Position numbers and translations under genes: made by a program | DNA from: Candidatus Thorarchaeota archaeon | GTDB lineage: Archaea; Asgardarchaeota; Thorarchaeia; Thorarchaeales; Thorarchaeaceae | Assembly (NCBI GenBank): GCA_048882045.1 | Contig: JBHLRZ010000014.1 | Span: 1-64,000, forward strand | Direction: 5' to 3' | Length of the DNA: 64,000 bases | In this document: in pieces, positions 27,184-31,318 of the stretch | Layout of the letters: every line of letters begins with the position of its first letter | Position numbering within the stretch: position 1 is the stretch's first letter | The notes under the pieces: model-generated | Seen by the model: only the letters and a program-made list of their open reading frames with translations | The model's database searches: none | Told to the model about the DNA's origin: nothing

Positions 27184-27576
27184 TCAAGCTCGCATCAGGC
27201 GACGAATCATTGTAGCTGCCTTTCCGATGGGTCTGGAGTGATATCGTACACCTTTTGGCATCACAGCTGCTAGAATCAACGCTCCTGAACCCTTGCCAAT
27301 CTTTTTGAAAACAGCTTTGCCTTCTGTGCACCTCAGACTGATATCTCGAATCTCTCCAAGCATGAGTTCCTTCCTGACTCGTTCAGCTGAGTCAGCAATG
27401 AAACTAGACACTGCAGCTACCACATCCTTGTCAGTGCCTGATGAAACAGCAGAGGCAATTGAGAGACCATCATTTCTGACAAGGGAGGACAATGTGAATC
27501 CACCTTCCTTGTTCATACTCGAAAGGATTTTCGGAAGAGCGGTATAGTCAGGTCGTTGCATTGTGATGCGCTCCAT
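27184..27576 (-). CDS. Roadblock/LC7 (MglB-like) protein
   Basis: SSLVRNDGLSIAS..DVVAAVSS...LGEIRDISLRCTEGKAV. Confidence 0.85.
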   Translation of the reverse strand: MERITMQRPDYTALPKILSSMNKEGGFTLSSLVRNDGLSIASAVSSGTDKDVVAAVSSFIADSAERVRKELMLGEIRDISLRCTEGKAVFKKIGKGSGALILAAVMPKGVRYHSRPIGKAATMIRRLMRA

Positions 27577-27696
27577 CGAACCAGCGGTCTATCATCGAGT
27601 TATTGGGTTCCCTAATAAACCATCTGAAACTTCGTCCAACGACAGTAGAGATTTAAATGACCCTGCTCCACGCTTTAGAATACGGAGTCATTTGGG

Positions 27697-28245
27697 TTGA
27701 CAGCTGAGTACCGTTTCAAGATAGTTATGTTAGGGGACGGTGCAGTAGGCAAGACAGCTATGACCACTCGTTTCACTCAGAACTTCTTTGAACAGGACTA
27801 TAAACGGACCATCGGAAGTGATTTCGCCATCAAACGTCTGGAAATCCCCGACATCGAAGCTATGGTGACACTACAGGTATGGGATTTGGCAGGACAGCCA
27901 AGGTTTGAGTCTGTAAGACAAGGCTTCTATCGTGGGGCTAGAGGAGGACTCCTCCTCTATGATGTGACAAGACGTCGTACATTCCTAAATGTAGATCGCT
28001 GGAAAGAGGAAGCCTTTAGCAACCTCCCCAAGGAGATACCTCTTGTCCTAGTAGCTAACAAGGTGGACCTAGATGAGAGTAGAGTGATTCCAATTGAGGA
28101 GGGTGAAGAATACGCTGAGGAGAATGGATTCCTCTATGTTGAATCAAGTGCCCTTACTGGAGAGAATGTCGAAGAAGCCTATACAACTCTCTGCAAGATA
28201 ATGATAGAGGAATCAAAGAGCAGTTCAGAGAACAAAATCGTATAA
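27697..28245 (+). CDS. Rab-like small GTPase
   Basis: FKIVMLGDGAVGKT, YKRTIGSDF, WDLAGQPRF, FYRGA, NKVD, ESSA. Confidence 0.93.
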   Translation: MTAEYRFKIVMLGDGAVGKTAMTTRFTQNFFEQDYKRTIGSDFAIKRLEIPDIEAMVTLQVWDLAGQPRFESVRQGFYRGARGGLLLYDVTRRRTFLNVDRWKEEAFSNLPKEIPLVLVANKVDLDESRVIPIEEGEEYAEENGFLYVESSALTGENVEEAYTTLCKIMIEESKSSSENKIV

Positions 28246-28248
28246 TCC

Positions 28249-29373
28249 TCACTTTGCGACTTTTCCTTTCAACAGACCAAGAGCTCTTTTGCATTGCCAA
28301 ACGATGTAGAACACCTTCTTAGTCGCAAGGGTCTCCTCATCATGTTTTGCGCACAAATCCTCAAACTTCTGGACATAGAAGTCCCGGTTTTCATCAGTCA
28401 GTTGTGATTCGATTTCTTTAAGCAGATTCTCAAAAGGAGCAAGGTTTGCTTCAAGGTCAGTGACATCCCAACGAATGATAGCGCCGGTTCCATCAGATGT
28501 AATGAATGTAGATGTCTTGGGATACCATTCAATCCCGTCAATCTCACCAATGGTTGTCGCCTCGCCCCTTATTCTGAGAGTTTCTGTATCCCAAAGATAG
28601 AGAACCTTGTCACTTGAGCCAGATGCTAGATACTTTCCATCCTCACTGAATGTCAGTGCACGGACCTCATTGGTATGACCCTGCAGTAAAGGTCCCATCT
28701 TCATAGGGGTCTCAGAAGCATCCCATAGGACAATATAGTTGTCAGAGGACCCGGAGGCGAGGAGGGTGCCGTCGTTGGAAAAACGGACCTGATGTACAGC
28801 TGCTCTGTGCTCACTGTGCCGTTTAATCATCTCTCCAGTGTTTGAGTCCCACTCACAGATGTTCGCATCAACTGATCCAGAAACGATACGGTTGTCGTTT
28901 GGGTCCCAGTCACAGGTGACAACGTAGAATCCATGTCCTTTTAACTGATGTAACGCAGATCGATTTTGCACATCCCAAATAATCAGAGTTGTGTCACCAC
29001 TTCCTGAAACAAGTCGGTTTCCATCAGGTGAGAATGAGAGGGATAAAACTGGATAATCATGGCCTTCCATCGTGGCAAGGCATTCGCCAGAACGAATGTC
29101 CCAAATTTTGACTACCCTCTCCACACTACCTGAGGCAAGAATGTCACCCTTGGGACTGAAAGCGAGAGAGGTGCAAAGGAAATCGTCTTGGAGTTTTTGC
29201 ATCTCTTGTCCATTATCGGCCATATACAGACGAATGCTTCGGTCCTGCATAGCCGCCCCATACATTCTTCCGATTCGATTCATAGCGAACCGACGTGTGA
29301 TTTCTGAACCGTGTTCAGCCTGAGACTTGAGAATCTTTGGTTTGAGAAATATTGAGAAGTCTTGACTCTCCAT
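28249..29373 (-). CDS. WD40 beta-propeller protein with helical C-terminal tail
   Basis: About 7 GH...FSPDG..SGS.D...IWD repeats. Confidence 0.92.
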   Translation of the reverse strand: MESQDFSIFLKPKILKSQAEHGSEITRRFAMNRIGRMYGAAMQDRSIRLYMADNGQEMQKLQDDFLCTSLAFSPKGDILASGSVERVVKIWDIRSGECLATMEGHDYPVLSLSFSPDGNRLVSGSGDTTLIIWDVQNRSALHQLKGHGFYVVTCDWDPNDNRIVSGSVDANICEWDSNTGEMIKRHSEHRAAVHQVRFSNDGTLLASGSSDNYIVLWDASETPMKMGPLLQGHTNEVRALTFSEDGKYLASGSSDKVLYLWDTETLRIRGEATTIGEIDGIEWYPKTSTFITSDGTGAIIRWDVTDLEANLAPFENLLKEIESQLTDENRDFYVQKFEDLCAKHDEETLATKKVFYIVWQCKRALGLLKGKVAK

Positions 29374-29522
29374 GAATGTCACGCACAGAACGGTTTCTGA
29401 TAGCGCCGGGAGAGAGTTTGCGTAAAAGTGTTGTTGATACGTCATTCCACTTAGTTGATTTAATGTCACATCACAATAACCATTATCAATCCAAATAGAA
29501 GCTGAAATTGAGAGGATCCCTA

Positions 29523-30743
29523 GTGAGTGATAAAGACGACGAATCAAAGTCCTCCGCTCAAGAGAGTAGTGGGACTGGTCGACGTCTAAGGAGGGGCAAG
29601 AAGGATGCTAAGAAGGAACCCTCATTCGTAGACAAAATGTTGAAATCCTTGTCTAGTATTCAGGCTTGCAAAGATGCAGCGATGACTGGGACCGACGACT
29701 TTCGTCTACTCGCTGTCTGTCGTCTTGGGGAGTATGGTGCAGAAGCATTTGAGGCACTGGACATTGCATTAATTGATGACAACCCTACTGTGCGCACCGT
29801 GGCTGCAGGTATGTTGGCATCATCTGAAGACAAGGATGCAATTGATATTCTGGAACCCTATCTCTCAGATGAGGATGAATCTGTTCGTGAAGCAATCGAA
29901 TATTCTTTGAGCTGGCTAAAAGGTCGTGCAACCGAAAGGGATCACGGAACTCAGATTCCATCAGACTGGGAAAATCCTGTACAGATGCTTCTCGAATCGG
30001 AAGCGGTTCCCTTGAGGACATCCGATGATGTAGAGATTGTAAGTACATTCTCTGCCATTCCTGAGAGTCTAGAGTTTGGAATGATGATGCAGAATTTTGG
30101 CGATGAACCCATTCATGACATCACCGTCAAGATCTTGCTCTACCCCTATGAGAGTCTAGAACCTGCAGAATCTCTGATGCAGGTAATTGACATCATTGAA
30201 CCAGACGGAATTGAAGCACTGATATTTGGTTTCAATGTAATAAAGGAATGTGTAGAAGGAGAGTTTGTAACATCAGTCCAATTCGTTGATGAACAAGGTG
30301 AACATATTGCTGCAAAATCCGGTAACATCTTTGTAAGATCACTCTTCGAGCAGTTTTCACCATTAGAAATAACACCTGAGGACTTCCTGAGTCTGAAGTC
30401 AGAGCTTAAAGAATGGAATAGAGAACACTCTCTAGAGGTCGAAGCTGAAGCCCTCTTTGAAACAGTAAAGGAACTTTTCGAGGATTGGAATCTCGGATCT
30501 TTTCAGTCAGAGCGCACAGAGAGAGATGACATGTACATGGGAGTCATCTCAGGTATGGCGAAAGGACGAATAACCGGGATACAGTTAGCTGTCACCCTGA
30601 CAGTTGTTGGTAAACTAAAAGACGCCTTGGCAAAACTAAGGATTGATGTTCTCTGTGAAGACCCTGAGGTGTTGCATACAATAGCCAGTGTGATATTTGA
30701 AACAATTCAGCGAAAGCTTGGAGTCTTTGAAACGGAGGACTAA
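29523..30743 (+). CDS. HEAT-repeat protein with adaptin/coatomer appendage (Ig sandwich + platform)
   Basis: HEAT repeats (L.DDNPTVR..AA..L; L.DEDESVR..), Ig-like MQNFGDEPIHDITV, platform-like FSPLEITPEDFLSL...LRIDVLCEDPEVL. Confidence 0.72.
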   Translation: MSDKDDESKSSAQESSGTGRRLRRGKKDAKKEPSFVDKMLKSLSSIQACKDAAMTGTDDFRLLAVCRLGEYGAEAFEALDIALIDDNPTVRTVAAGMLASSEDKDAIDILEPYLSDEDESVREAIEYSLSWLKGRATERDHGTQIPSDWENPVQMLLESEAVPLRTSDDVEIVSTFSAIPESLEFGMMMQNFGDEPIHDITVKILLYPYESLEPAESLMQVIDIIEPDGIEALIFGFNVIKECVEGEFVTSVQFVDEQGEHIAAKSGNIFVRSLFEQFSPLEITPEDFLSLKSELKEWNREHSLEVEAEALFETVKELFEDWNLGSFQSERTERDDMYMGVISGMAKGRITGIQLAVTLTVVGKLKDALAKLRIDVLCEDPEVLHTIASVIFETIQRKLGVFETED

Positions 30744-30751
30744 CGAGAATC

Positions 30752-31318
30752 CTATGCCAGACCGCCAGCTTCAAGGATTTTGATTGCTAGTTCTAGGAAT
30801 GCAGCCTCGACATTGAGTCCAGTCTTTGCTGAGGTCTCGAGGAACGAGGTATGTACACCTTTGTTTGCAATCTCAGTTGCCAACTTCTGGCCCTCTTCTG
30901 TTGTGACAATGGTCTGTTGCATGACCGGATTGTCCTTGAATTGGTCCCGAAGGTCAGTCTTGTTCCCAATCACCACGATTGGAATCTTCTTGCCTGCGTT
31001 TGTCCAACACTCATCCACCCAGTTCATGAGGTTGTCAAAGGACTTCCTCTCAACAGTGGAATAGACACCCAGGGCACCCTGAGCACCTTTATAGAAAGTA
31101 GAACGAACACTCTTGAAGTGTTCCTGTCCAGCCAAGTCCCAGATCTGTATACTGACGTCATGGCCACCTTCGAGGGACATCTTCTTGACAGCGAAGTCAG
31201 CTCCGATTGTGATCATATAGTTGGCTCGAAAACCTTCTCCCATGTACGTCTTTCTGAGGCTGGTCTTCCCGACTGAGCCATCTCCCATGAGTACAACCTT
31301 GAACAATGCAGTGACCAT
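30752..31318 (-). CDS. Rab-like small GTPase
   Basis: FKVVLMGDGSVGKT, TIGADF, WDLAGQEHF, FYKGA, NKTD, ETSAKTG. Confidence 0.93.
   Translation of the reverse strand: MVTALFKVVLMGDGSVGKTSLRKTYMGEGFRANYMITIGADFAVKKMSLEGGHDVSIQIWDLAGQEHFKSVRSTFYKGAQGALGVYSTVERKSFDNLMNWVDECWTNAGKKIPIVVIGNKTDLRDQFKDNPVMQQTIVTTEEGQKLATEIANKGVHTSFLETSAKTGLNVEAAFLELAIKILEAGGLA

Follow-up and report, generated by a model that had tools for sequence, protein, structure and literature searches.

The 64,000-nucleotide window analyzed here is taken from contig JBHLRZ010000014.1 (C14) of a 93-contig Candidatus Thorarchaeota genome. It carries genes for two Rab-like GTPases (RabA and RabB), a Roadblock/LC7 protein, a KaiB-like protein with a thioredoxin fold, two KaiC-like ATPases, a TPR-like alpha-helical protein and a WD40 beta-propeller protein. 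Next to these lies a gene for a 406-residue protein in which a HEAT-repeat stalk is followed by a hinge and an appendage, or ear; the protein is called the mini-adaptin here, and its gene the HEAT-ear gene. On balance, we favor reading this stretch as a GTPase/KaiC signaling neighborhood with scaffold or effector genes that are optional and can be lost one without the other. Conservation goes deepest for the unit Rab-roadblock-thioredoxin/KaiB-like-KaiC-KaiC. It includes the KaiC genes, so the KaiC link belongs to the core and is not an add-on; the view of the initial annotation that the cluster is physically joined to a KaiC module holds. The HEAT-ear gene and the WD40/RabB pair were added later, each of them dispensable alone.

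The conservation of the neighborhood was followed in two censuses of related genomes. The first was seeded with the HEAT-ear protein and gave 36 loci, which were scored with all window proteins. RabA was found in 32 of 33 loci, and the roadblock and KaiC a genes in all 30 loci that reach them; KaiC b was likewise present in each of the 30 related loci that reach its position. The WD40 gene lies to the left of the HEAT-ear gene in 28 of the 35 loci covering that side, and RabB lies to its right in 22 of 31. At least one other gene of the neighborhood stands beside the mini-adaptin gene in all 36 loci. When the WD40 gene is missing (seven loci; also G131), the mini-adaptin gene directly follows RabA on the same strand. 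These seven loci and five that keep the WD40 gene have a different right flank, in which ParA-like and acetyl-CoA-synthase (CdhD) genes replace RabB-PolB-LarC. The HEAT-ear gene was thus never seen away from the neighborhood, and it stays by RabA through rearrangements.

Since the first census was seeded on the HEAT-ear gene itself, a second one was seeded with the TPR-like protein, carried once by 78 of the 85 genomes of the family and likewise a single-copy protein in 16 of 16 genera. The same Rab/roadblock/thioredoxin/KaiC core was present in the 18 informative genomes of 16 genera (window included). The HEAT-ear gene occupies the locus in seven genera (g1, g3, g4, g5, g10, g12 and g15), and the genomes without it have the WD40 and RabB genes adjacent and co-directional. 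The core is at its plainest, as a single operon, in a genome of the sister family (G108), where RabA, roadblock, thioredoxin-fold, KaiC a and KaiC b genes form one co-directional run with gaps of 0-76 nucleotides (L068, G108:C21 8888-11825). This run adjoins a paralog of elongation factor 2 (EF-2) and has unrelated genes upstream; the TPR-like, WD40 and HEAT-ear genes are absent from the locus.

The history of the HEAT-ear gene was considered on a tree of the TPR-like protein with 19 rows, an arbitrary midpoint root and seven unresolved forks. All genera with the HEAT-ear gene fall in one clade (support 97/97) together with five genera that do not have it, and the four genera outside that clade do not have it either. 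One gain of the mini-adaptin followed by at least three losses is the simplest story that fits this tree, given its arbitrary root.

Several observations weigh against the signaling-neighborhood reading. The HEAT-ear gene is absent from the locus in nine of the 16 genera (11 genomes; g2, g6, g7, g8, g9, g11, g13, g14 and g16). One genome (G046) has a roadblock-thioredoxin-KaiC-KaiC-TPR half and a RabA-WD40-HEAT-RabB-PolB-LarC half on different contigs, and in another (G242, g12) RabB lies about 850 kb from the HEAT-ear locus with no WD40 gene beside it. RabA is missing from locus L019, where the roadblock gene is followed after 172 nucleotides by the WD40 gene (L019 3960-5690); this absence could reflect a deletion or an assembly artifact. 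The roadblock and RabA genes are divergent in the window, each with a TATA-like element of its own. The EF-2 paralog, PolB and LarC, which are unrelated neighbors, are equally syntenic, and all of the synteny was observed within a single archaeal order, in metagenome-assembled genomes. The mini-adaptin of the window matches no appendage family of Pfam, such as PF14806, PF02883 or PF09066, even at E values up to 1, and the GTPase-activating (GAP) or guanine nucleotide exchange (GEF) activity considered for the roadblock protein is an argument by analogy only.

The same comparisons bear on the initial annotation, which took the roadblock, RabA, WD40, HEAT-appendage and RabB genes together as one compact coat or adaptor precursor. 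That unity is not sustained: besides the nine genera without the HEAT-appendage gene, part of one genus lacks the WD40 and RabB genes at the locus, and a further genome is split between roadblock and RabA. The conservation of the gene neighborhood holds in so far as it recurs in related genomes, but the flanking PolB and LarC genes are conserved just as well and the five genes are not kept together. Because PolB and LarC are as syntenic as the supposed coat genes, synteny within the family discriminates poorly, and much of the adjacency could be due to inheritance alone.

It is accordingly possible, though we consider it rather unlikely, that the genes are neighbors by descent in a rarely rearranged block, and that the mini-adaptin, perhaps with the WD40 protein and RabB, serves another system, for example one of the type of the ESCRT (endosomal sorting complex) machinery. 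Besides the equal synteny of PolB, LarC and the EF-2 paralog, the loss of the mini-adaptin without loss of its neighbors in nine genera argues for such an arrangement, as do the links of published Asgard appendage proteins to Vps28, Vps23 and longin domains in the portions available of those reports. Against it, the mini-adaptin gene keeps its place beside RabA on rearrangement, both in the seven loci without WD40 and next to the new ParA-like/CdhD flank; it stays with RabA, WD40 and RabB in the split genome, and it is found elsewhere in none of the 36 seeded loci.

The possibility that a divergent mini-adaptin is hidden in the RabA-roadblock gaps of 1.2-1.5 kb found in two genomes was rejected, as these gaps hold a TnpB-like open reading frame (ORF) and small hydrophobic ORFs. 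The TnpB-like ORF in G152 (L049 7210-8430) codes for 406 residues with a CxxC...CxxC ribbon and is inserted between RabA and roadblock.

Genes in the window were typed from an ORF listing and a Pfam scan over 20.8-36 kb. From left to right, the order is an EF-2-like GTPase (+), a 772-residue ORF (-), two KaiC-like genes (-), the thioredoxin-fold gene (-), roadblock (-), RabA (+), WD40 (-), the HEAT protein (+), RabB (-), a zinc-ribbon ORF (-), a family-B DNA polymerase (PolB, +) and LarC (-). The typing of the five genes from roadblock to RabB in the initial annotation was correct according to the Pfam scan and, for the HEAT protein, to structure prediction with AlphaFold2 (AF2) and fold searches. 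The full ORFs extend over 28249-29547 for the WD40 protein, 29508-30743 for the HEAT protein and 30752-31348 for RabB. The WD40 start was placed at the methionine of MESQDF (29373) because several orthologs have stop codons just upstream, the HEAT protein start at the GTG codon at 29523 because the orthologs have 406 residues, and the RabB start at the ATG codon at 31318 because of upstream stops in most orthologs. With these starts, roadblock and RabA are divergent with a spacer of 120 nucleotides, RabA and WD40 convergent with 3, WD40 and the HEAT protein divergent with 149, and the HEAT protein and RabB convergent with 8; the orientations and spacers given earlier (3, 8 and about 150 nucleotides) are exact once the starts are corrected.

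RabA (27697..28245, +) is a Rab-like GTPase of 182 residues that matches PF00071 with 172.7 bits, and RabB (30752..31318, -) has 188 residues and 159.7 bits (cut-off 21.6 for both). The G motifs are GDGAVGKT, DLAGQ, NKVD and SAL in RabA and GDGSVGKT, DLAGQ, NKTD and SAK in RabB, so that the catalytic glutamine is present in both. The two proteins are 39% identical and are therefore not recent duplicates, and RabB orthologs are about 90% identical to one another. The best solved relatives of the two Rabs are Thor-Rab, Rab11, Rab8 and Rab1. RabA aligns with the crystal structures of Thor-Rab from Candidatus Thorarchaeota SMTZ1-45 (Protein Data Bank codes 7EZB, 7EZD and 7EZE; Tran et al. 2024, PMC10933270) with an E value of 1.5e-96 over 178 residues, whereas RabB reaches only 4.2e-37 with the same structures. 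Judged by sequence, RabA is the ortholog of the crystallized Thor-Rab. The contig from which Thor-Rab originates (LRSL01000056.1) is locus L005 of our first census and carries the full neighborhood. A C-terminal cysteine prenylation motif was not found in RabA (...SENKIV) or RabB (...EAGGLA), either here or in their orthologs, and the part of the Discussion of PMC10933270 that was available is consistent with this.

The presence of two Rab genes so close together could be fortuitous. With 33 Ras-family matches in a genome of 3.63 Mb, about 0.6 occurrences of two such genes within one 4.1-kb interval are expected genome-wide (Poisson estimate); tandem Rab pairs also occur elsewhere in the genome, on C7, C17 and C3. 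The pairing alone is therefore unremarkable. Its recurrence in related genomes lifts it above chance.

The roadblock protein (27184..27576, -; 130 residues) matches PF03259 with 29.2 bits (cut-off 23), and among solved chains Robl_LC7 proteins and LAMTOR2 come nearest to it. It is a candidate regulator of RabA, as GAP and/or GEF, by analogy with the MglA/MglB and Rag/Ragulator systems. The likeness to these systems lies in a roadblock gene next to a small GTPase gene; RabA itself differs from MglA in being Rab-like with a catalytic glutamine (DLAGQ).

The remainder of the core is formed by the thioredoxin-fold and KaiC genes, which share one strand with the TPR-like gene. The thioredoxin-fold protein (26740..27069, -; 109 residues) matches PF13192 with 35.9 bits and PF07689 (KaiB) with 26.5 bits, just below the cut-off of 27. 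It contains the motif CAFC, and a CxFC motif is kept in all 49 loci with a match. Its gene overlaps that of KaiC a (25997..26743, -; 248 residues) by 4 nucleotides, and 7 nucleotides separate KaiC a from KaiC b (25267..25989, -; 240 residues). Both are single-domain KaiC-like ATPases matching PF06745, KaiC a with 241.5 bits and the Walker A motif GKAGTGKS, KaiC b with 104.9 bits and GPLGSGKS. The Pfam and NCBIfam scans gave no double-domain KaiC and no KaiA, and KaiB stayed below the cut-off, in contrast to an oscillator of the KaiABC type. Archaeal KaiC-like ATPases pair with KaiB-like thioredoxin-family genes, as described in the accessible text of PMC4858521. The pair in the window fits this archaeal arrangement rather than the cyanobacterial clock. 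The likeness is that of a KaiC-like gene overlapping a thioredoxin-family KaiB-like gene; the differences are that KaiC is split here into two single-domain genes and that the KaiB-like protein keeps its CxxC.

The window's family has the TPR-like protein at the end of this run (22905..25223, -), 43-61 nucleotides after KaiC b. The ORF codes for 772 residues, and with orthologs mostly of 766 residues the probable start is at 25205. Pfam and NCBIfam scans of this protein gave no match; in an ESM Atlas feature search it was nearest to TPR clusters (score 0.94), and several database sources label it a TPR repeat protein. It is a candidate solenoid on the basis of the Atlas features and the source names only.

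The mini-adaptin is encoded at 29523..30743 (+). Its AF2 model, made with 30 homologs, has a mean predicted local distance difference test score (pLDDT) of 81. It consists of a disordered basic N terminus (residues 1-33), a stalk of seven helices with HEAT repeats (residues 35-135; 29625..29927), a disordered segment (residues 142-163; 29946..30011), a beta-sandwich (residues 165-275) and an alpha/beta platform (residues 285-398). The sandwich and platform together form the bipartite appendage (30015..30716). The disordered segment is a predicted hinge of about 22 residues between two confident domains, with pLDDT below 50.

Both lobes of a bipartite appendage are present in the AF2 model and in the fold searches. 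The ears of AP and COPI complexes align on both lobes, with a sequence identity of 10-14%; the closest are those of AP-2 alpha and beta2 and of COPI beta- and gamma-COP (1B9K, 1W80, 1E42, 1PZD and 9QPQ chain H). The ESM Atlas has a model of its own for the mini-adaptin, which matches the eukaryotic clusters 'Coatomer subunit beta' and 'AP-2 complex subunit alpha' with template modeling (TM) scores of 0.49-0.53 by query. As far as modeling shows, the ear is a true two-lobed appendage of the adaptin/COPI type, and the appendage fold proposed earlier for the HEAT protein is recovered, together with a hinge, in two independent models. At the sequence level, the beta-COP platform family PF14806 gives matches below the cut-off in four of the seven orthologs scanned (P0121, P0123, P0125 and P0126); they sit at the right position, with 13-21.3 bits against 32.7 and E values from 2.7e-4 to 0.1. 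The ear profile run against Protein Data Bank sequences gave chance-level matches only (E at least 0.4), so sequence alone fails to reach the eukaryotic ears. The motif WNREH (residues 298-302) in the platform is confined to the HEAT-ear ortholog group.

The stalk is of a more general kind. It matches HEAT_2 with 33.4 bits, which is generic, and Adaptin_N was not found in the mini-adaptin even at E values up to 1. The best structural matches are alphaRep designs, built from thermostable HEAT-like repeats according to their Protein Data Bank entry titles, and HEAT proteins of the bilin-lyase type. The stalk carries an invariant motif in the orthologs, SIQA.(K/R)DAA.TG. It resembles an adaptin trunk only in kind and is not one: the large subunits of AP and COPI have an Adaptin_N trunk of about 500-600 residues and mu and sigma partners, whereas the mini-adaptin has about 100 residues of HEAT_2 and the short hinge, and no such partner is near its gene.

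In most orthologs, the basic N terminus (29523-29621) contains the conserved motif ALGGGES..RLKKA.K, instead of which this genus has ...GRRLRRGKKDAKK. One possible role is that of a short linear motif, another that of a patch binding membranes or nucleic acids. A eukaryotic cluster of hypothetical proteins of 382 residues from Parabasalia aligns with residues 45-404 of the mini-adaptin in the Atlas (TM-score 0.47-0.49). On these models, it is a lead toward small HEAT-plus-ear proteins in eukaryotes.

The ear occurs well beyond the HEAT-ear gene. Its profile (alignment A2) matched 331 cluster representatives out of 1.84 billion at E values up to 1e-3, and 173 of these at up to 1e-10. Ten representatives were looked up; six belong to source-named clusters, four of which name the organism (three Thorarchaeota and one Lokiarchaeota). 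At the N terminus, most ear proteins carry something else: a propeller of the WD40-like, SBBP or LVIVD kind, a beta-helix, or LRR, FG-GAP or Ig-like domains. Of 137 matches of full length, 127 are paralogs, most of them with a tail of about 32-45 residues behind the ear, and in the members scanned the zinc-ribbon Pfam matches fall on that tail. The paralogs have a consensus of their own.

Of the 301 genomes of the phylum that were sampled, 91 match the ear profile. The window's family accounts for 71 (of 76), family f9 for 12 (of 68) and f16 for four (of five), and three further families have single matching genomes. With ortholog level defined as an E value up to 1e-60 and frames of about 400-520 residues where complete, matches were found in 41 of 77 family genomes (the window's own included) and in none of 224 outside the family. 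The 11 genomes without the HEAT-ear gene at the locus gave only paralog-level matches in the ear-profile sample, as seen in G236, except for G233 with none. Of the five ear genes in the window's genome, only the one at the locus adjoins GTPase or roadblock genes. Three of the other four lie within about 4.6 kb on contig C18 (L042 6752-8014, 7992-9227 and 10242-11354); a gene for an EamA-type transporter separates the second from the third, and one of these three proteins has a C-terminal zinc-ribbon match. The fourth is on contig C13 (L043 6288-8561) and codes for 757 residues. In two paralogs, P0139 (858 residues) and P0137 (914 residues, labeled Lokiarchaeota), a propeller at the N terminus is followed by the ear, then by a long helical stretch and lastly by a hydrophobic C-terminal tail, a possible tail anchor, with the ending G(V/I)PIP. 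With propeller and ear in one chain, they are like BBSome subunits.

The WD40 protein of the locus (28249..29373, -; 374 residues) matches PF00400 with 165.9 bits and many propeller families. Its propeller is preceded by a short segment and followed by a tail of about 60 residues, and the protein has no solenoid domain. The argument that it corresponds to the propellers fused to ears in the paralogs (a Rosetta-stone argument) was rejected, as the similarity is that of WD40 repeats in general (30 bits).

Under the signaling-neighborhood reading, the roadblock protein would set the nucleotide state of RabA, which would be a slow GTPase, in the manner of MglA/MglB and Rag/Ragulator. The KaiC/KaiB-like pair would provide a slow input through ATPase activity or phosphorylation, perhaps sensitive to redox state. 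Dispensable scaffolds would be arranged around this core, namely the WD40 propeller with RabB and, in some genera, the mini-adaptin; the window's family would have added the 766-residue TPR-like protein at the operon end. The mini-adaptin may act as a monomeric adaptor or effector with a logic like that of GGA proteins. Its stalk might dock on GTP-bound RabA or on the switch complex, and its ear might gather partner proteins through short motifs, arguing by analogy. GGA proteins are monomeric adaptors with a VHS-GAT-hinge-GAE architecture; they have the sandwich lobe only, bind Arf via GAT and are not HEAT proteins. No N-terminal homology between GGA proteins and the mini-adaptin is claimed.

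More far-reaching, and in our opinion quite improbable, is the proposal that the 406-residue protein is a living 'proto-adaptor', that is, a HEAT-hinge-ear monomer that GTP-bound RabA recruits under the timing of the roadblock/KaiC switch, with the WD40 protein as its outer-layer partner. It would then represent the plan of the adaptin large subunit before the heterotetramer arose, under the control of a Rab instead of an Arf.

We regard it as very unlikely that the locus encodes a primitive coat like AP/COPI, in which RabA and RabB, controlled by roadblock, would recruit the mini-adaptin and the WD40 protein to a membrane to polymerize or sort cargo. The close structural match of the ear to AP and COPI appendages over both lobes speaks for it, as does the HEAT-hinge-ear order, which copies the plan of the adaptin large subunit. 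The propeller gene is also divergent from the mini-adaptin gene at 149 nucleotides with the two GTPase genes abutting, and other Asgard paralogs fuse propellers straight to the ear. However, the parts are separately dispensable across genera, and the stalk is about 100 residues of generic HEAT_2 and not a trunk of about 600. No product of the cluster has a membrane segment (the maximum of the 19-residue hydropathy is 1.84, within a KaiC core), and neither Rab has a C-terminal cysteine. The WD40, HEAT and TPR-like proteins come from separate genes, so that the locus contains no propeller-solenoid chain, and no mu-, sigma- or Arf-like gene is present among the ORFs at 20.8-36 kb. The coat reading fails because its parts are not conserved together, because membrane segments and lipid-anchor motifs are missing, and because there is no propeller-solenoid chain and no mu-, sigma- or Arf-like partner nearby. 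Nothing shows that the genes of the locus build a membrane coat.

Appendage domains are already known from archaea; the HEAT-hinge-ear fusion is new with respect to the papers searched. Archaeal proteins with IG-like and TBP-like appendages have been proposed as interaction hubs, some with a longin domain that points to control by GTPases, and the published ears are fused to Vps28-C, Vps23, steadiness box, longin, GOLD and zinc-ribbon domains in ESCRT contexts (Liu et al. 2020, 10.1101/2020.10.19.343400; Makarova et al. 2024, 10.1101/2024.02.06.579148; Eme et al. 2023, PMC10307638; statements limited to the portions of these sources that were available). Excerpts of this literature trace archaeal appendage regions back to the last archaeal common ancestor. 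In contrast to the published proteins, the ear here is on a HEAT stalk and in a Rab/roadblock/KaiC locus. Asgard adaptin domains are described as unfused in the accessible parts of the literature searched, and AP gamma adaptin is listed among eukaryotic signature protein (ESP) families in the available text of a 2026 preprint. Neither the HEAT-hinge-ear protein nor the locus was found described in the main texts searched, and a combination of GTPase/roadblock and KaiC switches in one operon was not found there either.

According to the available text of PMC10933270, Asgard small GTPases are hard to assign functionally because their genes rarely adjoin those of regulators; in the Lokiarchaeon MK-D1, small-GTPase genes generally lie outside operons with roadblock or longin genes. 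The neighborhood of Thor-Rab is not discussed in that portion of the paper. The only Thorarchaeal Rab that has been crystallized now has conserved neighbors that can be named: the roadblock protein, the KaiC-like ATPases, the propeller protein and the adaptor-like protein. The question of its regulators and partners narrows to a short list of candidates, and these proteins can be produced in E. coli. The HEAT-hinge-ear fusion bears on the origin of the adaptin large subunits, and the comparative data caution against reading such clusters as coats.

The EF-2 paralog (20801-22897, +; 698 residues) has no Pfam EFG_IV match, and its gene runs convergently toward the end of the KaiC/TPR-like genes. 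It also adjoins the KaiC end in the sister-family genome (L068 11853-13922). A second EF-2-like gene on the same contig (G000:C14:70929-72968) has a frame of 742 residues and is 38% identical. That the locus is a KaiC/KaiB-like timing or redox-sensing device, with translation or growth control through the EF-2 paralog as its output and with Rab and roadblock as accessories, is highly doubtful: the abutting position in both families, the second EF-2-like gene and the retained CxFC motif would suit such a device, but the EF-2 gene is convergent and not co-transcribed, no evidence ties EF-2 to any protein of the cluster, and the scaffold genes would be left unexplained.

The most variable spot of the block is the spacer between RabB and PolB. 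In the window, it holds the ORF with the C-terminal zinc ribbon (31425-31931, -; 168 residues), which is matched in one of the 36 loci (L025). Over the family-B polymerase gene (32001-34000), the G+C content rises to 0.514, compared with 0.44-0.46 in the surroundings, and there is a strong GC and AT skew.

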